Below, one piece after another: positions 4,018-49,694 of a stretch of DNA of 51,312 nt. The stretch comes from an uncultured Bacilli bacterium (GTDB lineage Bacteria > Bacillota_I > Bacilli_A > RF39 > UBA660). Where the stretch lies: assembly GCA_944358125.1 (NCBI GenBank), contig CALVQM010000001.1, positions 1 through 51,312 of the forward strand, in the 5' to 3' direction. The first letter of the stretch is position 1, and every line of letters starts with the position of its first letter. The translations under genes and the position numbers were made by a program. The notes under the pieces are model-generated. The model searched no databases. It saw only the letters and a list, made by a program, of their open reading frames with translations, and was not told the origin of the DNA.

Positions 4018-4060
4018 TTTTTTGCTTGTCAAAGATTATGATAAATTATATAATAAATAT

Positions 4061-4134
4061 GTAAGTGTTATCCATTTGGTGGATAGTGCCTGCTTTGTGG
4101 TCGACGCTATGCCTTATGGCTAGCGACTTTTTTT
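4061..4134 (+). ncRNA. antitoxin-like small RNA, repeat copy 1
   Basis: Own promoter TTGTCA(4026)-17 nt-TATAAT(4049). The transcript would start at the conserved GTAAGTGTTATC. It has a 5' hairpin (TTATCCA/TGGATA) and a GC-rich terminator hairpin (CGCTAtGCC/GGCTAGCG) followed by a T7 run. About 80% identical to copies at 4921 and 48322. Confidence 0.6.
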
Positions 4135-4164
4135 ATGTTCGTCTCTAATAATAGAGATTAGCAT
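4120..4164 (-). pseudogene. 5'-deleted remnant of the type I toxin-like peptide gene (copy 1)
   Basis: Encodes only MLISIIRDEHKKSR*, which aligns to the C-terminal half of the 26-aa peptide at 48381..48461. The about 100-nt 5' UTR, the SD and the first codons are missing. The promoter-like TTGCTT/TATAAT is fused directly onto the ATTATAATAATT codons. Confidence 0.5.
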
Positions 4165-4228
4165 AATTATTATAATAAACAAATACTTAAAAAAAGCAAA
4201 GAGAAGCGTTCGACAAAATTCCGATATC

Positions 4229-4852
4229 TTATCTTATCCTATGCTGGCAATCATTAAAACCATAAACTGAACTTTGATAATTTCTGTTAAAGAGGTCTAT
4301 TGCAAAAGCTTCACCATATCTTGAAGACTTTTTTATCATAAAGGCTCTAAATCTTTCAGGATCATATTTTTCAACGTTAAAATATTCTTCATGTCTATAG
4401 AGGGAAAAAAATAAATCTGTTAAATCTAAATCTATTAATGTATTTATGCCATTTTGTAAGGCCTTCTCACCTATTCTTTTTACACAATCTTGGGCATGAT
4501 ATCCACCTATAACTAGTTCCTCTGCTTCACCTAATTGATTAATGATTAGCTGTTCATTTGGATATTTGACTTCTTCTCCAGTATTTATACCTTTATTACT
4601 GACTGCTTCATTAAAAGTAACATCTGTAAAAATAATTTTGTCATCCTTTTTAGGTGTTATACCAAATATCTCTTTGTCTGGATAAAGAATATAAACAACT
4701 TGATATCCTTTATCACGATATCTTTTCTCTATGGCTTCATTTAACACATCAAAAGGCCTTTTAAAATTGTTGGCATCATAATATTCATTTCCCAAAAAGA
4801 AAACATTTGCGAATTCTTTAATGGGATAAAGATAGAGAAAAATTTTATTCAT
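4229..4852 (-). CDS. hypothetical protein, 207 aa (weak isochorismatase/cysteine-hydrolase-like pattern)
   Basis: Clean ORF with SD GAGG 9 nt upstream. The LVIGGYHAQDCVKRIGEKALQNGINTLIDLDLT segment resembles the isochorismatase-fold core. The family assignment is only a visual impression. Confidence 0.3.
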   Translation of the reverse strand: MNKIFLYLYPIKEFANVFFLGNEYYDANNFKRPFDVLNEAIEKRYRDKGYQVVYILYPDKEIFGITPKKDDKIIFTDVTFNEAVSNKGINTGEEVKYPNEQLIINQLGEAEELVIGGYHAQDCVKRIGEKALQNGINTLIDLDLTDLFFSLYRHEEYFNVEKYDPERFRAFMIKKSSRYGEAFAIDLFNRNYQSSVYGFNDCQHRIR

Positions 4853-4920
4853 TACATTAACCTCACTTTTCTATATTAATTAATCTTGAAATAATTTGTT
4901 TTATAGCATATAATAAGTAT

Positions 4921-4992
4921 GTAAGTGTTATCTGCTTCGTGGATAACGCCTACTTTGTGGTCGACGCTATGCCTTAAGCTAGCGTCTTTTTT
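4921..4992 (+). ncRNA. antitoxin-like small RNA, repeat copy 2
   Basis: Promoter TTGAAA(4886)-17 nt-TATAAT(4909). Same GTAAGTGTTATC start, 5' hairpin GTTATC/GATAAC and terminator hairpin plus T-run as copies 1 and 3. Confidence 0.6.
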
Positions 4993-4993
4993 C

Positions 4994-5065
4994 CTAAATT
5001 GATTTCAGTAAAACTAAAACAAGTAGGATTATTATAATGTATAAGTACTGTTTTTCCTTATCCAT
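4994..5065 (-). CDS. type I toxin-like hydrophobic peptide, 23 aa (MDKEKQYLYIIIILLVLVLLKSI)
   Basis: SD AGGTGA 6 nt upstream of the ATG. Promoter TTGCTT(5188-5193)-17 nt-TATAAT(5165-5170) gives a leader of about 95 nt. Convergent with the sRNA. A TAG stop precedes the conserved basic tail (EKRR*) seen in copy 3. Confidence 0.5.
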   Translation of the reverse strand: MDKEKQYLYIIIILLVLVLLKSI

Positions 5066-5230
5066 TTACATCACCTGCTTTCGATTAAACCCCCTGAATA
5101 AATCAGTAGTTTAAACTACTTACAAAATGAAGCAGGCGCTACCACCAGTAAATAACGATTATTTATTATAAAGCAAATACTTTAAAAAAGCAAGAAAAAG
5201 CGTTCGACAAAATTCGACGTTTATTTTTTG

Positions 5231-15414: not shown

Positions 15415-15425
15415 AAACCCAGGAT

Positions 15426-16984: not shown

Positions 16985-17192
16985 ATAAAATAAAAAATCA
17001 TAAACTAAGGACGAGTAAATACCCGTGGTACCACCTTAATTCATGATTTTATTCATGCACTTTACTTTTATAACGGTAAGTTGCCGTCTAAACTCCAGAG
17101 TCATCTTCCTCATTATCTAGTGTTTATTTTCATCAGCCATAAACTTTCTTTAAGCGTAGATAATAAGTACTCATTCCTTCAACATTTAAGAT
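16985..17192 (-). promoter_or_regulatory. T-box riboswitch leader of metG
   Basis: Promoter TTGACA(17222-17227)-17 nt-TATAAT(17199-17204). T-box sequence AATTAAGGTGGTACCACGGG (rc of 17022..17041). Long terminator helix AATCATGAATTAAGG/CCTTAGTTTATGATT followed by TTTTTTATTTT. Candidate specifier GAAG-AUG-A at 17102..17104. Confidence 0.85.
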
Positions 17193-30479: not shown

Positions 30480-30492
30480 ATTATCACCCAAT

Positions 30493-30569
30493 AAAAAAGT
30501 GCACACAAATAGAGATTGACGTGGCTGCTACCTCCCGGTCCTGACCAGATTACAATATATTTGTTGCAC
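30493..30569 (-). ncRNA. ffs: signal recognition particle RNA, short 4.5S type (about 77 nt)
   Basis: Minus strand CTGGTCAGGACCGGGAGGTAGCAGCCACG matches the conserved domain IV (GGUCAGGUCCGGAAGGAAGCAGCC) with a GGGA tetraloop. Terminal helix GTGCAACAAATA/TATTTGTGTGCAC followed by TTTTTT. Promoter TTGCAA(30599-30604)-17 nt-TAAATT(30576-30581). Confidence 0.85.
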
Positions 30570-30610
30570 ATATATAATTTATCATAAAAAGTTGGAAATT
30601 GCAAGTCCTA

Positions 30611-31172: not shown

Positions 31173-33629
31173 TTATTGCTGTTCTTCACTATTAACATCT
31201 TGATCAATTGCTTCATCATCTAGTTCTTCTTTTTCAACTAGACTAATAGTAGTTACGTATTGATCATCTTTTAAATGAATTAATCTAACACCTTGTGTTA
31301 CTCTTCCTAAAGTATTAATTTGATCTAAAGTCATTCTCATGGTTGTTCCGGTATTAGTCATTATAACTAATTCTTTGTTTTCATCAACAACTTTTACAGC
31401 TGCTATATTACCATTTTTTTCAGTAATATTTAGGGCTTTTACTCCTTTACTGCCACGACTTGTTTCTCTAAAATCACTTACTAAAGTCTTTTTTCCATAT
31501 CCTTTTTCAGTTACCAACAATATTTTATCATTTTCATTTACTACTTCGGCACAAACACATTTACTTCCATCAAGATTTATTCCTTTGACACCACTAGCTG
31601 TACGACCCATAGGTCTAATTTTATCTTCATAAAATTTTACCATTCGACCGGTTTGGCTACCTAGTAAAATATAATTATTACCATTGGTACGCTTTACGGC
31701 AAGTAATTCATCATTTTCTTTTAAATTAATACAAATTTTGCCTGACGTACGTATGTTTGAAAACTCTTCGATTGCGGTTTTCTTAACTAAACCTTGTTTA
31801 GTAACAAATAATAAATATTTTGTATCTTCTTTAGATGAAATTCCTAATATAGAACTGATTGTTTCATCTTTTTCAATTGGAATTAAATTAATAATTGGAA
31901 GACCTTTAGATTGTCGATTAAATTCTGGTATTTCATATCCTTTAATTCGATATACTTTTCCTTTATTAGTAAAGAATAAAACGTGATCATGAGATGAAAT
32001 ATTAATAATTTCTTCAACAAAGTCTTCATCATTGGTTGTCATACCTTTAATACCCATGCCACCACGTTTTTGTGCTTTAAAGGTATCAGATGTAGTTCTT
32101 TTAATATAACCTTTATTAGTCATGGCTATAAGTACATTTTCTTCAGGAATTAAAGATTCATCTTCAATATATTCAATAGCGGTCATATCAATATCTGTAC
32201 GACGTTTATCACCATATTTATCTTTAATTTCTAATAATTCTTCTTTAATAATATTTAATACTTTTTCTTCAGAAGCAAGAATACCTCTTAATTCTTCAAT
32301 TAATTTTAATAACTCATTTAATTCTTCTTCAATTTTATCTCTTTCCAAGCCTGTTAATCTTCTTAAACGCATTTCTAATATGGCTTCAGCTTGAACATCA
32401 CTTAAATTGAAATTGTTCATTAAACCAGCTTTAGCTTCTTCATCAGAGGCAGATGCTCTAATTAATTTAATTACAGCATCAATATGATCTAAAGCGATTT
32501 TTAATCCTTCTAAAATATGAACTCTTTTTTCAGCCTTATCTAGGTCAAATTGGGTTCTTCTAATAATAACTTCTTTTTGATAATCAATATATTTTGAAAT
32601 AATATCTTTTAATCCAAGTGTTTTAGGTACACCATTATCAAGCATTAAGAAAATAATACCATAGGTTGTTTGAAAAGCGGTGTGTTTATATAATTTATTT
32701 AAAATAACACTAGCATTTGCATCTTTTTTTAAAGTAATTGTAATTTTGATACCATCTTTTAGATCAGCATGATAATCAGTAATACCTTCTAATACCTTGT
32801 TATGAACGAGTTCAGCAACTTTGTTTTTAAGTTCTAGGGTATTTACACCATATGGTACTTCATCAACGATAATATATTGTCTACCATTTTTTTCTTCAAT
32901 ATGAGCACGGCTCCTAATAGTAATTGTTCCCCGACCTGTTTCATAGGCTTTTTTAATACCACTATTACCGAGAATTAAAGCTCCTGTTGGAAAATCGGGA
33001 CCTTTAATATACTCCATTAAACCGTTTACATCAATGTCAGGATTATCAATATAGGCTATACAACCATCAATTACTTCACCAAGATTATGAGGAGGAATAT
33101 TGGTTGCCATACCAACAGCGATACCCATAGTTCCATTTACTAATATATTCGGAAATCTTGATGGTAATACTTCTGGTTCTTTCGTTGTTTCATCATAGTT
33201 TGGTAAGAAGTTCACCGTATTTTTATTAATATCTCTTAATAATTCCATAGATATTTTAGCTAGTTTAGCTTCGGTATAACGGTAAGCAGCAGCTCCATAA
33301 CCTTCAATGTTACCAAAGTTTCCATGACCGTCTACTAACATATAACGATAGTTAAAATCTTGAGCCATTCTTACCATTGCTTCATAAATACTTGAGTCTC
33401 CATGTGGGTGATATTTACCCATTACATCACCAACAATAGTTGCAGATTTACGATGTTGTTTATCTGGAGTTAAGCCATTTTGAAGCATATCATATAAAAT
33501 TCTTCGATGAACTGGTTTTAGTCCATCTCTTAAATCTGGTAGGGCACGAGATACAATAACACTCATGGAATACTCAAGAAATGAATCTTTTATTTCAGTT
33601 ACTATATTATTTTGTTCTAATCTATCCAT
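31173..33629 (-). CDS. gyrA: DNA gyrase subunit A
   Basis: 818 aa with the QRDR region [17 protein letters not shown], the active-site [10 protein letters not shown], and a beta-pinwheel C-terminal domain. Confidence 0.96.
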
Positions 33630-33640
33630 ATAAACCCTCC

Positions 33641-36645
<3,005 letters not shown>

Positions 36646-36747
36646 TTTTTAGCCCCTACTTTGTTGATATAAAAAAATTAATGGTATAATCGTACTCCTA
36701 TACCTATATATATTATATCATAAAAAAAGACCTTTTTAAAGGTTTTT

Positions 36748-37188
36748 TTAGTGTTTTCGGCCTTTTAAGGCTGAAAGTAACCGTGTTGCCCGAAGGACTT
36801 GGCGATCAAATATTGTACAACTTATTTCTAAATCAATTTCGCGGTTATTTTTAAAGATAACTGTTACTTGATTATCATTTTTTAGGTAATATTTTAAAAT
36901 ATTTTGAGATACAAGCCAAATACAGTTTGGGTGAAGATAAGAATGTGTTGGTATTAAAATTAGCTTCTTTACTTCATCAATTACTATTGGTGGTTTGTAA
37001 GTTGCTCCAATTAAAGAACTACTTCCATGTCTCCTTCCTGCTAAAGTGGATCCAGATAGAACACAATTATGTTCTAATATTTGGAGAATAGGCTCATCAA
37101 TTAAAATATCATTACTAGTTTCTAGTATATGAGTTTTATCCCCTTCGGGAATGAGAGCAAGTGTTTTTTCTTTTATTATATACGGCAT
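36748..37188 (-). CDS. comK: ComK-family protein, 146 aa
   Basis: Aligns by eye to B. subtilis ComK. LALIPEG aligns with IAVLPEE. SGSTLAGRRHGS aligns with GSSYAGRKAGT. YKPPIVID aligns with HKPPIMVD. LILIPTHS..HPNCIWL aligns with IFLFPTLS..RPQCGWI. FDRQVLRATRL aligns with FENQVYRTAWL. ATG at 37188, 8 nt after AAAGGGGG. Confidence 0.65.
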   Translation of the reverse strand: MPYIIKEKTLALIPEGDKTHILETSNDILIDEPILQILEHNCVLSGSTLAGRRHGSSSLIGATYKPPIVIDEVKKLILIPTHSYLHPNCIWLVSQNILKYYLKNDNQVTVIFKNNREIDLEISCTIFDRQVLRATRLLSALKGRKH

Positions 37189-37196
37189 GACCAATG

Positions 37197-37232
37197 CCCC
37201 CTTTCATATAATGTTATAACATATGAAAAGGG
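37197..37232 (-). promoter_or_regulatory. hairpin sequestering the comK-like Shine-Dalgarno
   Basis: Minus strand CCCTTTTCATAT...ATATGAAAGGGGG: 11 bp with one bulge. The 3' arm contains the SD. No U-run follows. Confidence 0.5.
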
Positions 37233-37265
37233 CGAAATTTGTCGAACCGTGGAAAAGCATTTATT

Positions 37266-38384
37266 TTAGTAAGTTTTTATTGGTAAAATTAGTTGAATTA
37301 GAGATTCATCTGTTAAAGATTTGATAATTAATGGTTTTACATCACTATTTAGAAGTAATAATATTTCTTCTTCTCCTAAAGTTTTAATAGCTTCTAACAT
37401 ATATTTAGAAGAGAAAGAAATTTCTAGACGATCTTTGTTGTTGGTTTCTACACTTAGTTGTTCTTCTACTTTACCAATTTCGGAAGCATAAGAATTAATT
37501 GTCATTTTGGTATTTTCCAAAGTCATTTTAACAATGTTTTTATCTTTTCCTTGTGTTAGAAGAGCGGCTCTATCGATAGCGTCATTAAAATCTTTTTTGG
37601 TTACTTTAACAATATAGGCAAATTCACTTGGAATTAAGTTAGAAGTATTGGGATAATTACCACTTAAAATATTGGTTTGAAAATTAATGTTTTTATATTT
37701 AAATAATACTTTATTATTAAAAATGTGCATTTCGATATCAGAATCATCAGTAATAATCCGTTCTAATTCCATTATATTTTTACCAGGAATAACAATTTCG
37801 ACATCTTTTTCGACAGGACTTGATAATTTAATATTCTTTTTAGCTAAACGATAAGAATCCGTTGCTACAGTTTCTAAAACATCTTTAGTAAACTTAAAAT
37901 TTACACCAGTTAAAATGGGTCTTAATTCTTGATTAGAAATAGCAAATACGGTTTGATTAATAATCGTTTTAAATATTTCACCATTAATTATAATAGGATC
38001 TTTATTAATTTCTAACTTAACATCAGGATAATCATTAATATCTAGACAATTTAAGTTATATTGGTTATTGTCGGTATAGATTTTTATTTTTAATCCATCA
38101 ATAACTTCAAAGTTAATTAAATCACTAGGCATTTTTCTAACTATGTCTAAGATATATTTACTTTGAATAATTATTCCTCCTAAAGAACTTATTTCTTTTA
38201 TTTCTTTAGATTCAATTAGCACTTTAATTGTTAATTCAGAATCACTAGCTGTTAAATATAGGCCATTATTTGTAAGTTCAAATTTAATACCATTTAATAC
38301 AGGTATGACATTTTTTGTTGATATTGCTCTTGTTACATTACTTAACCCTTCTAAAATTATGCTTTTTTCAATTGTAAATTTCAT
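37266..38384 (-). CDS. dnaN: DNA polymerase III beta sliding clamp
   Basis: MKFTIEKS start as in B. subtilis MKFTIQK. About 372 aa with three-domain clamp length. Position after dnaA. Confidence 0.93.
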   Translation of the reverse strand: MKFTIEKSIILEGLSNVTRAISTKNVIPVLNGIKFELTNNGLYLTASDSELTIKVLIESKEIKEISSLGGIIIQSKYILDIVRKMPSDLINFEVIDGLKIKIYTDNNQYNLNCLDINDYPDVKLEINKDPIIINGEIFKTIINQTVFAISNQELRPILTGVNFKFTKDVLETVATDSYRLAKKNIKLSSPVEKDVEIVIPGKNIMELERIITDDSDIEMHIFNNKVLFKYKNINFQTNILSGNYPNTSNLIPSEFAYIVKVTKKDFNDAIDRAALLTQGKDKNIVKMTLENTKMTINSYASEIGKVEEQLSVETNNKDRLEISFSSKYMLEAIKTLGEEEILLLLNSDVKPLIIKSLTDESLIQLILPIKTY

Positions 38385-38390
38385 ATTCAT

Positions 38391-38530
38391 TCCTTCTTTC
38401 TTTAAATTATTATTATTTATAATAGTGTTAATAATGTTTGTAACTTCTTTTTTTCTTTTATTTAAGCTAAATTTTGTCGATTTTTTATGTTTATAACTAC
38501 TAATTTATTCACAGTTTTGCAACAAGTTAT
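38391..38530. other. dnaA-dnaN intergenic part of oriC (candidate unwinding region)
   Basis: One near-consensus DnaA box TTATTCACA (38505..38513) is followed immediately (read toward dnaN) by TAGTAG (rc of 38497..38502), a DnaA-trio-like motif. An extremely AT-rich stretch follows at 38400..38460. Confidence 0.5.
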
Positions 38531-39880
38531 TTACAATTTAGCTTTTATTTCTTTAATTGTTTGTTCTAATTCGTGATTAGTAAGTAATTCTTGAGATATC
38601 TTATCACAAGCGAATATTACTGTTGAATGATCTCGACCTCCAAATTCTAAGCCTATTCTTGGGAAAGTTTCATCTGTTTCCATTCGGCACAGGTACATGG
38701 CTAGTTGACGCGGATGAGCTACTTTGTTGCTTCGTTTCTTTCCTTTTAAATCTTCAATTGTTATATTATAGTGATCAGCGACGGCTTTTTGAATTTTGGT
38801 AATATTATTGTTAGAATAGATATTTTTATTAACAAAATCTTTTAAGGCTTCACAAGTAAATTCTAAATCAATTGTTTTAGGAACAATCATTGCGGTGTAT
38901 GCCATAAGTCTGTTAATTGCTCCTTCTAGAAATCTTATGTCATTTTGACAAGCATTAGCAATATATTCAATGCTTTCTTCTTTTATTAGGCCCGCTAGAC
39001 TAGTATTTTCGATTTTTTTCCTGATAATTCGACATCTTAAGTCAAAATCGGGTGGATAAATATCTACGGGTAAGCCCCACATAAATCTGGACCGCAGGCG
39101 TTCTTCTAAAATTTTTAAATCTTCTGGAGATCGGTCACTACTGATAATAATTTGTTTATTCGACTGATGTAGATAATTAAAAGTGTTGAAAAATTCTTGT
39201 TGGGTTTTTTCGGCTCCTACTAGGTACTGGATATCATCAATAATTAAAACATCTACATTGCGGTATTTATTTTTAAAATCATTGGCATATTCTACAGTAT
39301 TTTTGGCATTATCCGGATTAGCAATATTCGTATATTCGGTCATAAATTCATCACAAGTACAATATAATACTTTTCGATTAGAATTCTCTGTTATAAAATT
39401 ACCTATTGCGTGCATTAAATGCGTTTTACCAAGACCACTTTTTCCATATATAAATAAAGGATTATGGATTCGACCCGGGGCTTCTGCTACGGCCATGGCC
39501 GCTACTTTAGCAAGTCTATTGGTATCTCCTACGACAAAGTTATCAAAGTTTAGATTGGGATTTAGGTTTGTTTCAAAATTACTATTGTTAGTAACTTCAT
39601 TGTTATTAACAACTATATCAGGTGTTTCTTCAATATCACTTTCTAAGACAAATTCAATATCGTAATTTATATTGGTTATGCTAGCCAGTGTTTTTTCAAT
39701 TAAAGAATAATAATTATCTCCTAGCATTTTTTTATGAATTTCCATGGGGACTTTAAAAGTTATTTTATCACTTGTTAGACTTACAATACTCAAGTCATTG
39801 AACCAGGCATGGAAAGATGCTGGATTGATCTCTTTATAGATGTTATCTAAAAATAGTTTTAATAATTCTTCTTTATCCAA
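38531..39880 (-). CDS. dnaA: chromosomal replication initiator protein DnaA
   Basis: AAA+ Walker A GKSGLGKTHL, LIIDDIQ, and domain IV RDHSTV. Likely TTG start at 39880 after GGGGTGAGG. The track ORF extends to 39916. Confidence 0.93.
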   Translation of the reverse strand: MDKEELLKLFLDNIYKEINPASFHAWFNDLSIVSLTSDKITFKVPMEIHKKMLGDNYYSLIEKTLASITNINYDIEFVLESDIEETPDIVVNNNEVTNNSNFETNLNPNLNFDNFVVGDTNRLAKVAAMAVAEAPGRIHNPLFIYGKSGLGKTHLMHAIGNFITENSNRKVLYCTCDEFMTEYTNIANPDNAKNTVEYANDFKNKYRNVDVLIIDDIQYLVGAEKTQQEFFNTFNYLHQSNKQIIISSDRSPEDLKILEERLRSRFMWGLPVDIYPPDFDLRCRIIRKKIENTSLAGLIKEESIEYIANACQNDIRFLEGAINRLMAYTAMIVPKTIDLEFTCEALKDFVNKNIYSNNNITKIQKAVADHYNITIEDLKGKKRSNKVAHPRQLAMYLCRMETDETFPRIGLEFGGRDHSTVIFACDKISQELLTNHELEQTIKEIKAKL

Positions 39881-39916
39881 CTTTAACCTCACCCCACAGT
39901 CTGGACTTTTTAACAC

Positions 39917-46844: not shown

Positions 46845-48203
46845 ATGGCTAAAAAGGTTGTTATTGATCCTGGTCATGGAGGAGAAGATCCTGGAACTAG
46901 TGCTAATGGAATTGTTGAAAAAGATTATACTTTGTTAATTAGTCAATATATGGCTGATCGTTTAACGGAACTAGGAATAGAAAATGCTTTAACTAGGGAT
47001 AGTGATGTTACACTTGATTCAACGACAAGACCTAAGACTGCTCAAAGTTTATTTGGTACGGGTAGTGATGTTATTTTGGTATCTAATCATATTAACGCTG
47101 GTGGTGGAGATGGAGCAGAAATAATTTATGCTTTAAGAAATAGTGATACTTTATCTAGTAAGATAGCTAGTGAATTTATTAAGTCTGGACAAAATGTAAG
47201 AAAGTATTATCAAAGAAGACTTCCTAGTAATTCTAGTAAAGATTATTATTACATTTTAAGAGAAACACCTAATAATGAATCTATTATTGTGGAATATGGC
47301 TTTGCTGATTCAACAGGGGATGATGTCAATCAAATTAAAAATAATTATAAAGAACTTGCTGAGGCAGTTGTAAGGGCTCTTGCTAATTATATTGGTGTAG
47401 CTTATACAGCTCCAGCAGGAAGTGGTGGTAATTATTATACGGTTAAAGCTGGAGATACTTTATATGGAATTGCAAGAAATTATGGTATTAGTGTTGATGA
47501 ACTTAAAGCTGCTAATAATTTAACAAGTAATACTCTTACGATTGGAGAAGTATTAATTATTCCGGAAGTAGAGACACCAGAAACTCCTGATGAAAATATT
47601 TATATTGTTAAAAGTGGAGATACTCTTTATTCTATTGCCAATAAATATGGGATGAGTGTTAATGAACTTAAATCTTTAAATAATGTTACAAGTGATGTTT
47701 TATCTATTGGTCAGGAATTAATAGTTAGTGAAGGTAACGCAGCAACACTCGATACTTATACAGTTAAATCTGGTGATACTTTGTATAGTATTGCTAATAA
47801 ATATGGTTTAACAGTAAATGAATTAAAGCAACTTAATAATTTAACTAGTGATATTTTAAGTATTGGACAAGTGTTAAATATTAGTAATAGTGTATCATCT
47901 CCTAACCCATCTAATACTTATACAGTTAAAAGTGGAGATTCTTTATATAGTATTGCTAAAAAGTATGGTATAACGGTAGATGCTTTAAAAAGTGCTAATG
48001 GAAAAACTTCTAATTTACTTTCTATTGGAGAAATATTAGTTATACCAACTACAACAGCGACTACTAGAACTTACACTGTTAAATCTGGTGATAGTTTGTG
48101 GAAAATAGCTACTAATTATGGGGTTAGTGTGAATGCTTTAAAGCAAGCGAATGGCCTTACAAGTGATCTTTTATCAATAGGTCAAGTACTTGTAATTCCT
48201 TAG
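46845..48203 (+). CDS. N-acetylmuramoyl-L-alanine amidase (Amidase_3) with five LysM repeats
   Basis: VIDPGHGGEDPGT...HINAGGG catalytic domain. Five tandem LysM repeats of the YTVKSGDTLYSIA..YG..V..LK..N.L.S..L.IGQ.L.I type. No N-terminal signal peptide is visible. Confidence 0.9.
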   Translation: MAKKVVIDPGHGGEDPGTSANGIVEKDYTLLISQYMADRLTELGIENALTRDSDVTLDSTTRPKTAQSLFGTGSDVILVSNHINAGGGDGAEIIYALRNSDTLSSKIASEFIKSGQNVRKYYQRRLPSNSSKDYYYILRETPNNESIIVEYGFADSTGDDVNQIKNNYKELAEAVVRALANYIGVAYTAPAGSGGNYYTVKAGDTLYGIARNYGISVDELKAANNLTSNTLTIGEVLIIPEVETPETPDENIYIVKSGDTLYSIANKYGMSVNELKSLNNVTSDVLSIGQELIVSEGNAATLDTYTVKSGDTLYSIANKYGLTVNELKQLNNLTSDILSIGQVLNISNSVSSPNPSNTYTVKSGDSLYSIAKKYGITVDALKSANGKTSNLLSIGEILVIPTTTATTRTYTVKSGDSLWKIATNYGVSVNALKQANGLTSDLLSIGQVLVIP

Positions 48204-48321
48204 TTTTAAGAAGTACTCTTGAGATTATTTTTGAAAAAATATTAATTGATAATTTTTTGTTTATAAAAATTAAAAGTAAAAAATTCTTGTTAATCTATTC
48301 GAAATATGATATATTGAATAT

Positions 48322-48398
48322 GTAAGTGTTATCTACTTAGTGGATAACGCCTGCATTGTAGCAAACGTTATGCCTTTTGGCTAACGTCTTTTCTTTTG
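48322..48398 (+). ncRNA. antitoxin-like small RNA, repeat copy 3
   Basis: Promoter TTGTTA(48287)-17 nt-TATATT(48310). Conserved GTAAGTGTTATC start. The terminator stem CGTTAtGCC/GGCTAACG carries compensatory C-G to T-A changes relative to copy 1. Confidence 0.6.
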
Positions 48399-48461
48399 CT
48401 CATCTCTAATAATAGAGATAAGTAAAATTATTATAATCAGTAATAATCTAGTATCACACAT
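48381..48461 (-). CDS. type I toxin-like hydrophobic peptide, 26 aa (MCDTRLLLIIIILLISIIRDEQKKRR)
   Basis: SD GGAGGG 6 nt upstream of the ATG. Promoter TTGCTT(48589-48594)-17 nt-CATAAT(48566-48571). Leader of about 100 nt whose 5' GCCUGCUUUC can pair with the SD region GAAAGUAGG. The last codons overlap the convergent sRNA. Confidence 0.55.
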   Translation of the reverse strand: MCDTRLLLIIIILLISIIRDEQKKRR

Positions 48462-48642
48462 TTACATCCCTCCTACTTTCATAAAACCCCCTGAATAAAA
48501 TCCAAGTAGTTATTACTACTCATAAAAAGAAAGCAGGCGCTACCACCAGTTAGATAACAGCATCTATTATGAAACTTTGTCTATAAAAAAGCAAGAGAAA
48601 GCGTTCGACAAATACTGACGTTTTCTGACATCTGTGTCGAAA

Positions 48643-48672
48643 ATAAAAAAATACCTATTTATTAAGGTATTT
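48643..48672 (-). terminator. intrinsic terminator of the XRE gene pair
   Basis: Minus strand AATACCT-loop-AGGTATT overlapping the stop, followed by TTTTTTTATTTT. Confidence 0.6.
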
Positions 48673-49113
48673 AGGATGGTCTATTTTACCAAGTAAATAA
48701 TCCGCAGAGATATTATATTTTTTACATATTTGGTATAAATAAGTTGTAGCAATAATATAATTCCCTTTTTCATATTTTGCTAACATAGAATTATCTACAT
48801 TTAAAATATCCGCTAATTTAATTTGGGTAAGATTATTTTCTTTTCTGATCTCTTTTAATCGTTCACTAGATAATTTGATATTAATTTCATCTCTTAAGTT
48901 TTTATATTTTTTAATATTAGTAAATTCAAATATATAATCAATTGAGACATTAAAATAGTTACATAAAGTATTTAGATGTATTATCGGGATGGTTTGCTCT
49001 TCTTTTTCATACCTGCTATATAAACTATCAGATATTTTTAATAAATTAGATATTTCAATATTAGTTTTCCCATATCTATCTCTTAATTGATATAATTTTA
49101 TACCATAGTTCAC
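48655..49113 (-). CDS. XRE-family regulator with two HTH_3 domains, 152 aa
   Basis: Two HTH repeats (ISNLLKISDSLYSRYEK and LADILNVDNSMLAKYEKG). GTG start at 49113 by alignment with the paralog at 49236..49694. Confidence 0.8.
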   Translation of the reverse strand: MNYGIKLYQLRDRYGKTNIEISNLLKISDSLYSRYEKEEQTIPIIHLNTLCNYFNVSIDYIFEFTNIKKYKNLRDEINIKLSSERLKEIRKENNLTQIKLADILNVDNSMLAKYEKGNYIIATTYLYQICKKYNISADYLLGKIDHPKYLNK

Positions 49114-49156
49114 GTATATCACCATATACAATTTCTCATATCTACGTTTTTTTGAC

Positions 49157-49235: not shown

Positions 49236-49694
49236 TTAACTAATATAACTTTTAGGTTTATCTGTTTTTCCTAATAGATAATCAGCGGAAATACCATATT
49301 TTTTGCAGATTTGGTATAAATAAGAAGTAGCAATTGGAAAAAGTGCTCTTTCATATTTTGAAATTGTAGAATTATCTGTATTTAATATGGTTGCAATTTT
49401 TAATTGAGTTAATTTGTTTTCTTTTCTAAATTCCTTTAATCTTTGAGAAGATAAGTTAATATTTATTTCTTTTTTAGATTTGTTATAGTTTTTTAATTTA
49501 GTAAAATTAAAAATATAATCTAATGAAACACCAAAATAATTACATAAAGTATTTAAATGTTTTATTGGGATAGTTTGCTTGTTTTTTTCGTATCTGCTAT
49601 ATAGGCTATCAGATATTTTTAATAAGTTTGCCATTTCTACATTAGTAAGTCCTTGACGATCTCTTAAATTAAATAGTTGTTTTCCATAGTCCAT
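49236..49694 (-). CDS. XRE-family regulator with two HTH_3 domains, 152 aa (tandem paralog)
   Basis: Colinear with 48655..49113 at roughly two-thirds identity by eye. Confidence 0.85.
   Translation of the reverse strand: MDYGKQLFNLRDRQGLTNVEMANLLKISDSLYSRYEKNKQTIPIKHLNTLCNYFGVSLDYIFNFTKLKNYNKSKKEININLSSQRLKEFRKENKLTQLKIATILNTDNSTISKYERALFPIATSYLYQICKKYGISADYLLGKTDKPKSYIS

Follow-up and report, generated by a model that had tools for sequence, protein, structure and literature searches.

A probable type I toxin–antitoxin-type module of a previously unannotated family in uncultured Bacilli

What is encoded at positions 48287–48600 of contig CALVQM010000001.1, from an uncultured Bacilli bacterium, where a short hydrophobic open reading frame (ORF) on the minus strand converges with a predicted small RNA (sRNA) gene on the plus strand? 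An earlier reading of this DNA, made from the letters of the sequence only, had described the locus as an intact type I toxin–antitoxin-like module. Systems of type I are difficult to detect, and reports of them come from few phyla (PMC12390103). The locus was followed up here in the whole stretch of 51,312 nt (the window) and in related loci from other genomes and metagenomes. The locus represents a new family of a known kind, in an uncultured Bacilli lineage, and is closest in its working to bsrG/SR4; this previously unannotated family is probably of the type I toxin–antitoxin type, toxicity being assigned by analogy. When both strands of 48000–48900 were read, every sequence element listed by the sequence-only reading was found in its place. 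The module is more than a chance arrangement because the full-length mRNA of about 240 nt folds with z = −7.9 against shuffles, because of the covariance scores of the sRNA, and because the whole unit recurs in other genomes.

Relatives were collected by two scans. Species-representative genomes were scanned with a pattern taken from the leader, which gave 31 true matches and 6 chance ones, every true match coming from metagenome-assembled genomes (MAGs) of uncultured Bacilli; an independent scan of metagenomes with an sRNA pattern added 23 loci. Profile searches of all DNA fetched from both scans yielded the 43-module set used below. The family comprises at least 43 distinct full modules, as well as fragments, from about eight uncultured Bacilli MAG species, and several modules lie in tandem. 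Candidatus Caccenecus avistercoris (NCBI: Bacilli incertae sedis) has about 12 copies. Across the family the predicted ORF, the sRNA and both putative convergent promoters are conserved.

The Shine–Dalgarno (SD) sequence GGAGGG and the 26-residue ORF behind it, MCDTRLLLIIIILLISIIRDEQKKRR, were confirmed. Family peptides have 23–27 residues, with a polar N terminus, an Ile/Leu core of 13–14 residues and, in most subtypes, a basic tail; four subtypes recur across species (Table 1). The start codon interchanges between ATG, GTG and TTG within one alignment column, all indels in the ORF are in-frame multiples of three, and variable sites number 20, 13 and 39 at the three codon positions, the third being the most variable. 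Judged by this alignment, the predicted ORF evolves like coding sequence. An 11-nt string, ATTATAATAAT (48424–48434, minus strand), encodes IIII and is invariant in 24/24 aligned members, third positions included. The same string resembles a −10 box, and the promoter scan lists GTGATA-16-TATAAT at 48457–48430.

On the plus strand, the promoter TTGTTA-17-TATATT was present as described, followed by an sRNA of about 76 nt with two hairpins and a U-run: hairpin 1 (48322–48355), a variable linker, a terminator hairpin (48365–48388) and the U-run (48389–48397). In the family the promoter spacer is 17 nt in 41/43 modules, the −10 reads TATATT or TATAAT in 38/43, and TG is found in 28/43; this TG-extended promoter, which a generic promoter scan lists, is the stronger of the two predicted promoters. 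The sRNA overlaps the stop codon and the last five codons of the ORF, the terminator hairpin including the complement of the stop codon (48381–48383) as had been proposed, and is perfectly complementary to the final ~76 nt of the mRNA. Its consensus fold has 21 pairs (fold z = −5.9 for the window copy). Among 24 aligned sRNAs, hairpin 1 is canonical in 100% of cells on the plus strand, all of its variation being C-G to U-G, U-A to U-G or A-U to G-U, and the terminator stem shows the compensatory changes CG to UA and GC to AU. Read on the minus strand, hairpin 1 is only 81% canonical, because the plus-strand wobble pairs turn into C.A mismatches. Only the plus strand thus preserves the hairpin structure, and by this comparison the predicted sRNA is a plus-strand RNA. 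The covariance-model search that had been suggested for the "three copies" was carried out; the sRNA model finds exactly three copies in the window, all on the plus strand, at 84–97 bits, with the next match at 29 bits. These copies are numbered 1–3, copy 3 being the main module (Table 1).

The sRNA also carries the anti-SD-like CGCCUGC that had been pointed out (48348–48354), from which it might be supposed that it acts mainly in trans on the ribosome-binding site via this motif, and not via the 3′ overlap. CGCCU[GA]C is conserved in the sRNA, an identical motif occurs in the mRNA 5′ end, and in members whose SD is of the GGUGA type the motif could form a duplex with GCAGGUG, a segment that contains the SD. 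The motif is, however, mostly buried in the basal stem of hairpin 1 (pairs 1-34, 2-33, 3-32, 5-30, 6-29 and 7-28), and GGAGG-type members, the window copy included, allow only 5 bp and a mismatch. The best duplexes between the sRNA and the 5′ untranslated region (UTR) are not above shuffled controls (z +0.4 to −2.8), so that the anti-SD-like role is not supported, and a mainly trans mode of action is very unlikely.

For the toxin mRNA, the minus-strand promoter TTGCTT-17-CATAAT and its leader, put earlier at about 100 nt, were likewise found. The −35 lies at 48594–48589 and the −10 at 48571–48566, with a 17-nt spacer; transcription is predicted to start near 48561, and the leader is about 97 nt. 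The promoter is kept in the family (TTGCTT in 33/41, CATAAT in 37/41 and a 17-nt spacer in 36/41). Both the AGTAGT (48520–48515)/ACTACT (48510–48505) stem and the G5 tract (48491–48487) are present. The arms of the stem are conserved and its loop is variable, and in single-sequence minimum free energy (MFE) folds the AGUAGU/ACUACU hairpin has a rival in an extended helix in which the G5 tract takes part. UUCAGGGGG of the small hairpin/G5 region is conserved, yet was part of the genome scan pattern; the diverged module L042b, described below, also carries CAAGGGGGUU.

Upstream of the toxin promoter lies a direct-repeat box with the family consensus GTCGAA-N4-GTCGAAC. It is conserved in all three window copies (48603–48619, 5202–5218 and 4208–4225, minus strand), ends about 8 nt before the toxin −35, and occurs only with modules, as a double repeat in 31/43 and as a single GTCGAAC in 7/43. 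This box is a candidate that could act as an operator or UP-like element. A LexA box was considered and rejected on inspection, CGAAC being present but the palindromic second half absent. An upstream mini-ORF that overlaps the SD in copy 3 (AUG AAA GUA GGA GGG AUG UAA) was rejected as a family feature because its start varies between AUG, ACG and AUC among members.

What the sequence-only reading had missed is a 24-bp helix between the first ~30 nt of the mRNA and its own 3′ UTR. These ~30 nt, CUGUUAUCUAACUGGUGGUAGCGCCUGC, nearly copy the 5′ end of the sRNA, GUGUUAUCUACUUAGUGGAUAACGCCUGC (hairpin 1), and therefore pair with the mRNA's own 3′ UTR (48559–48533 with 48355–48327, in the MFE fold and also in the RNAalifold consensus). 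The helix appears in the MFE fold of 25/25 members folded, with 22–29 pairs. Its 24 long-range pairs are 99.1% canonical and all variation keeps pairing, as at column pair 12-251 (CG9/UA8/UG7, zero broken). Cognate 5′/3′ duplexes in 35 unique modules range from −30 to −43 kcal/mol, and the diverged modules L031b, L056 and L042b each pair best with their own partner: in L031b and L056 the 5′ arm has changed in concert with the loop and upper stem of hairpin 1, and in L042b both arms have switched jointly from GUGUUAUC to GCGUUAGG. The helix accepts G.U pairs on the minus strand, so what is constrained is the RNA and not an inverted repeat in the DNA. Because the 5′ ~30 nt mimic hairpin 1, the mRNA 5′ end and the sRNA would compete for one 3′ site, and the modelled 5′ arm would act as a cis mimic of the antitoxin.

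This helix bears on a further explanation, namely that the unit is a non-coding repeat or mobile element resembling a miniature inverted-repeat transposable element, with inverted repeats of ~28 nt, or else an attenuator with an Ile-rich leader peptide, the ORF being incidental or regulatory. Such an element would be multi-copy, as is this unit of about 345 bp with its internal inverted repeats, and the IIII-encoding ATTATAATAAT is invariant in nucleotides. The inverted repeats are internal, however, conservation reaching outward to both promoters, and tolerance of G.U pairs on the transcribed strand places the constraint on RNA, not DNA. The ORF moreover combines third-position bias and in-frame indels with amino-acid conservation, and copy 3 has no downstream gene to attenuate on the toxin strand because the next gene is convergent. 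A repeat element or attenuator is thus barely credible as an account of the locus, and we return to a convergent toxin–antitoxin-type unit.

Sequestration of the SD, the design that had been attributed to the extreme 5′ leader segment, is supported, with a different partner. GCCUGCUUUC and GAAAGUAGG can indeed pair (9 bp, one G.U), but GCCUGC itself lies within the 24-bp long-range helix, and in folds and covariation the partner of the SD is the U-rich tract just 3′ of GCCUGC. This tract (48531–48522) pairs with the SD region (48476–48467) in the MFE fold and is the SD partner in about 18/25 members; the window SD has a mean modelled probability of being unpaired of 0.05 in the free full-length mRNA. 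Tract type co-varies with SD type, UUUCUUUU going with GGAGG and UUCAUUU with GGUGA. The six-pair anti-SD helix is 91.5% paired, with compensatory columns AU11/UG7/CG2 and AU14/GC7; its covariation score was reached by 0/500 shuffles, which is supportive rather than proof because the helix was derived from the same, related sequences. The register proposed in the sequence-only reading, CCUGCUU/AAGYRGG, is an alternative that is possible in nearly all members and appears in the folds of GGUGA-type members once the 3′ end is blocked.

The word "intact", applied earlier to copy 3, seemed to imply that the other copies were not, which holds for copy 1. There the leader, SD, start codon and N-terminal half are gone, by a deletion that runs from the promoter −10 TATAATAA to an identical string inside the ORF. 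Copy 2 was considered as a nonsense mutant; this was rejected, since its 23-residue form recurs across several species, and copy 2 is a conserved subtype. Loci L010 and L022 of C. avistercoris match window copies 3 and 2, respectively. A pattern of decay in which the sRNA is retained and the toxin translation signals are lost is seen in window copy 1, in L033 and in L037/L055/L062; it is the one indirect sign that the peptide may be toxic. The ATTATAATAAT string is the endpoint of the copy 1 deletion. Copies 2 and 1 flank, as direct repeats, a 207-residue ORF without a Pfam family that lies between them (4229–4852, minus strand); spacing is similar in L014, where about 900 nt separate two copies. 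In L051 (354–1033, minus strand) the toxin ORF of a member is interrupted behind codon 10; the insert is a group II intron of about 680 nt, without an ORF and carried on the opposite strand (Rfam RF02005, 145.8 bits; RF00029, 55.1 bits).

A tandem second module, L042b (L042:2325–2660, plus strand), encodes an unrelated 32-residue peptide, MKVRLKVILPRIIKIALVLEIVTNAKTKNNRH. It shares the GTCGAA box, the toxin promoter and the G5 and anti-SD tracts, and its sRNA and 5′ mimic have co-diverged. The long-range helix, the anti-SD tract and a two-hairpin sRNA are all kept in L042b, which suggests that the RNA chassis can host different peptides. A broader proposal would make the family a portable regulatory chassis (GTCGAA box, weak promoter, antitoxin-mimic 5′ end, anti-SD tract and convergent two-hairpin sRNA) that carries at least five peptides, the mimic gating access of the antitoxin and the box being a signal-coupled operator; we put this forward as speculative and improbable.

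Taken as a type I module, the locus would work as follows. The weak conserved minus-strand promoter would give an mRNA of about 240 nt for a peptide of 23–27 residues, and the stronger plus-strand promoter a convergent sRNA complementary to the mRNA 3′ end. If it behaves as bsrG/SR4 and txpA/RatA do, its closed mRNA would be stable and poorly translated. The analogy would further have the sRNA enter via the terminator-loop and linker region and displace the 5′ arm, RNase III cut the ~76-bp duplex, destroying the toxin mRNA, and the freed 5′ segment CCUGCUU possibly re-pair with AAGYRGG at the SD. On loss of the sRNA, the peptide would be made and, as in the systems taken for comparison, might damage the membrane.

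SD/anti-SD pairing and a 5′–3′ long-distance interaction are key determinants of type I toxin mRNAs (PMC8594479), and here both are predicted with covariation. They occur with a hydrophobic ORF of fewer than 60 codons under coding selection and with a gene for an antisense RNA that is complementary to this mRNA (predicted promoter, hairpins and terminator). Several points weigh against this assignment. With 13–14 residues, the hydrophobic core is shorter than would be expected of a membrane span. The toxin −35 matches TTGACA at 3/6 positions only, a poor match to consensus; the promoter is for this reason below the threshold of the generic promoter scan, which failed to list it, and so its support is conservation and not consensus. 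A clear intrinsic terminator for the mRNA was not found on the minus strand, and the mRNA 3′ end was accordingly placed from the helix. When SD accessibility was modelled thermodynamically in three states (free, sRNA-bound and 3′-trimmed), the mean unpaired probability was 0.27 free versus 0.24 sRNA-bound with no consistent direction, sRNA binding raising accessibility in GGAGG-type members and lowering it in GGUGA-type members. Because the genome scan pattern itself prescribed the 5′ segment GGTAGCGCCTGC and the G5 tract, their invariance in the scan set is partly ascertainment, and the family members are closely related, their covariation counts not being independent events.

The evidence also concerns RNA architecture and coding, not toxicity, and would suit a gene for a small membrane protein with a physiological role (e.g. 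a membrane-protein modulator) under cis-antisense control, the sRNA tuning its level. The short core fits such a role, as do the position of modules in housekeeping regions of the chromosome, close to rpsI, mnmE and the presumed replication origin, and the lack of matches in plasmid and phage collections. Less easily accommodated are the copy number (some 12 in a small genome), the duplication of modules in tandem, the mixture of peptide subtypes, one tandem copy in which the chassis carries an unrelated peptide, and the repeated loss of translation signals while the sRNA is kept; a heavily sequestered SD with a closing long-range helix is, in addition, a hallmark of toxin mRNAs (PMC8594479). 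A physiological membrane protein is therefore unlikely, and a type I toxin–antitoxin-type module is the reading we prefer.

Table 1. Coordinates and sequence patterns of the module, its copies in the window and the peptide subtypes
Feature	Position	Strand	Basis or detail
Upstream box	48603..48619	−	direct repeat GTCAGT-ATTT-GTCGAAC, 8 nt before −35
Toxin promoter TTGCTT-17-CATAAT	48566..48594	−	read from sequence
5′ arm of long-range helix	48533..48559	−	MFE and consensus fold
U-rich anti-SD tract UUCUUUUUAU	48522..48531	−	MFE pairing with 48476–48467
Hairpin AGUAGU-AAUA-ACUACU	48505..48520	−	RNAalifold consensus
Small hairpin CUUGGAU/AUUCAGG, then G5 tract (48491–48487)	48487..48504	−	MFE
Shine–Dalgarno GGAGGG, 6 nt upstream of ATG	48468..48473	−	read from sequence
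ORF, 26 residues, MCDTRLLLIIIILLISIIRDEQKKRR, subtype A putative toxin	48381..48461	−	ORF listing
3′ arm of long-range helix, toxin mRNA 3′ UTR	48327..48355	−	complement of sRNA hairpin 1
sRNA promoter TTGTTA-17-TATATT, TG-extended −10	48287..48315	+	promoter scan
Antisense sRNA, about 76 nt	48322..48397	+	fold z = −5.9; covariance model 96.9 bits
Copy 3 (main module)	48286–48623		
Copy 2, subtype B	4885..5222	−	ORF 5065..4994 encodes MDKEKQYLYIIIILLVLVLLKSI, 23 residues
Copy 2 sRNA	4921–5001	+	promoter TTGAAA-17-TATAAT at 4886–4914
Copy 2 toxin promoter	5193–5165	−	
Copy 1, decayed	4025..4221	−	leader, SD, start codon and N-terminal half gone
Copy 1 sRNA, intact	4061–4142	+	promoter TTGTCA-17-TATAAT at 4026–4054; 87.6 bits
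Peptide subtype A, 26 residues			M[SC]DT[RK]LLLIIII[LM]LISIIR[DE]E[QH]KK[RS]R
Peptide subtype A′, 24 residues			MSDMTLLLIIIIMLIQKDN[YH]EKRR
Peptide subtype C, 27 residues			MNEEIKYLFIIIIMLISxIRDEHKKSR
Peptide subtype B, 23 residues			MxxExxxL[YF]IIIILLxLVLLKxx; without basic tail

Elsewhere in the window, two tandem paralogous genes with double helix-turn-helix domains (XRE-type, by Pfam; 48655–49131 and 49236–49694, minus strand) are the immediate upstream neighbours of copy 3. Over 300 nt their coding sequences share 74% identity, and the regions upstream of them are repeated too; metagenome contig L006 has an assembly gap across the pair. A perfect palindrome of 26–28 nt, AAATTATTTCCCGGGAAATAATTT, occurs in six copies (at 15421, 20571, 25233, 28823, 28913 and 35900) and may be a bidirectional terminator or an element of the repetitive extragenic palindromic kind. 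A T-box leader (17004–17191) and a small signal recognition particle (SRP) RNA (30483–30580) were located on the minus strand with Rfam. The sizes and order of the ORFs at 31173–39916 suggest a gyrA-gyrB-recF-dnaN-dnaA arrangement; if this is correct, the window spans the chromosomal replication origin region.

Searches of databases returned no named relative. Rfam at the gathering threshold over the whole window gave the T-box and the SRP RNA only and no type I antitoxin family (RatA, Sok, Sib, RdlD, par RNAII and others), and Rfam at E ≤ 10 over 48100–48800 gave nothing relevant. Eight peptide variants had zero matches in Pfam and NCBIfam, in keeping with the earlier remark that no named family obviously fits the peptide. 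Pattern scans of viral contigs were without match, as were blastn with the module and tblastn with the peptide against plasmids and phages, where the low-complexity filter may mask the peptide. On gut metagenome contigs a flanking amidase is found with a nearly identical module, at which no gene is called. The family is thus absent from Rfam, Pfam and NCBIfam and uncalled in public assemblies, yet has about a dozen copies in small gut Bacilli genomes, and the sRNA covariance model and the peptide motifs can be used to annotate such loci in MAGs.

The toxins of txpA/RatA, yonT/SR6, bsrE/SR5 and sprG/SprF have 30–59 residues. No Rfam family for RatA or another antitoxin matched the window, and, unlike in txpA/RatA-type systems, the mRNA here probably covers the sRNA over its full length and not only in part. 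For these systems RNase III degradation of the duplex is the expected consequence (PMC3531473). In Gram-positive type I families generally, the antisense RNA is on the 3′ side and overlaps partially (T1TAdb paper, PMC8594479). With fst/RNAII (par of pAD1) and the Fst/Ldr group the locus shares convergent transcripts with a common terminator region, a small peptide with a hydrophobic core and charged tail, and an SD sequestered by intramolecular pairing (PMC8309996). In par, however, the two transcripts are complementary at their 5′ ends, through the direct repeats DRa and DRb, and cover the start codon there, whereas the 5′ ends here are alike as inverted repeats and not complementary; a match to the Pfam Fst_toxin family is absent, and the APxxxG motif is missing from all subtypes. 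As in the Gram-negative hok/Sok, 5′–3′ pairing of the full-length toxin mRNA would keep it inert (PMC3834814, PMC8594479), but Sok is directed at the mok ribosome-binding site in the 5′ region and the mRNA has to be trimmed at its 3′ end to become active, whereas the sRNA here is directed at the fold-back helix itself, namely its 3′ arm.

The likeness to 3′-overlapping Firmicute systems such as txpA/RatA and bsrG/SR4, already remarked upon from the sequence, proved closest for bsrG/SR4 of the B. subtilis SPbeta prophage. Homology in sequence to bsrG/SR4 was not found with Rfam, Pfam or NCBIfam, and tblastn against phage records, which are expected to include SPbeta-type phages, gave no match with a query that was possibly low-complexity-masked. 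The peptide here has 23–27 residues versus 38, the sRNA ~76 nt versus ~180 and the mRNA ~240 nt versus ~294; the sRNA consists of two hairpins only and lacks a 5′ stem-loop outside the complementarity; the modules sit on the chromosome in multiple copies, with no prophage genes recognised beside the window copies; and there is an upstream GTCGAA direct-repeat box, as well as a subtype B without basic tail. In both systems, toxin mRNA and sRNA are convergent with overlapping 3′ ends. In bsrG mRNA, helix P1 joins nucleotides 1–33 to the 3′ part of the molecule, and its 3′ half is complementary to SR4 (PMC3834814); the free toxin mRNA is in this way closed, as predicted here, by a long helix that ties its 5′ end to the antitoxin target in the 3′ region (PMC3834814). 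In this type of system, binding of the antitoxin must displace the mRNA 5′ end because the closing helix occupies the antitoxin target. When SR4 binds, nt 1–33 are set free, the stem that sequesters the SD becomes longer, and the duplex is broken down by RNase III (PMC3834814); here, too, the SD would be partly sequestered and re-paired after binding (PMC3834814, PMC8309996). Further points in common are an antitoxin promoter stronger than that of the toxin and a hydrophobic peptide with a basic C-terminal tail (PMC3834814, PMC8309996). The 43 modules form an unusually clean comparative set, with compensatory changes in the 5′–3′ helix, the anti-SD helix and both sRNA hairpins. While not a sequence member of the bsrG/SR4 family, the locus has, on its modelled folds, the same architecture, a 5′–3′ helix with the antitoxin target and a 3′ overlap, and the set bears on a mechanism, displacement of the mRNA 5′ end by the antitoxin, known hitherto mainly from bsrG/SR4.

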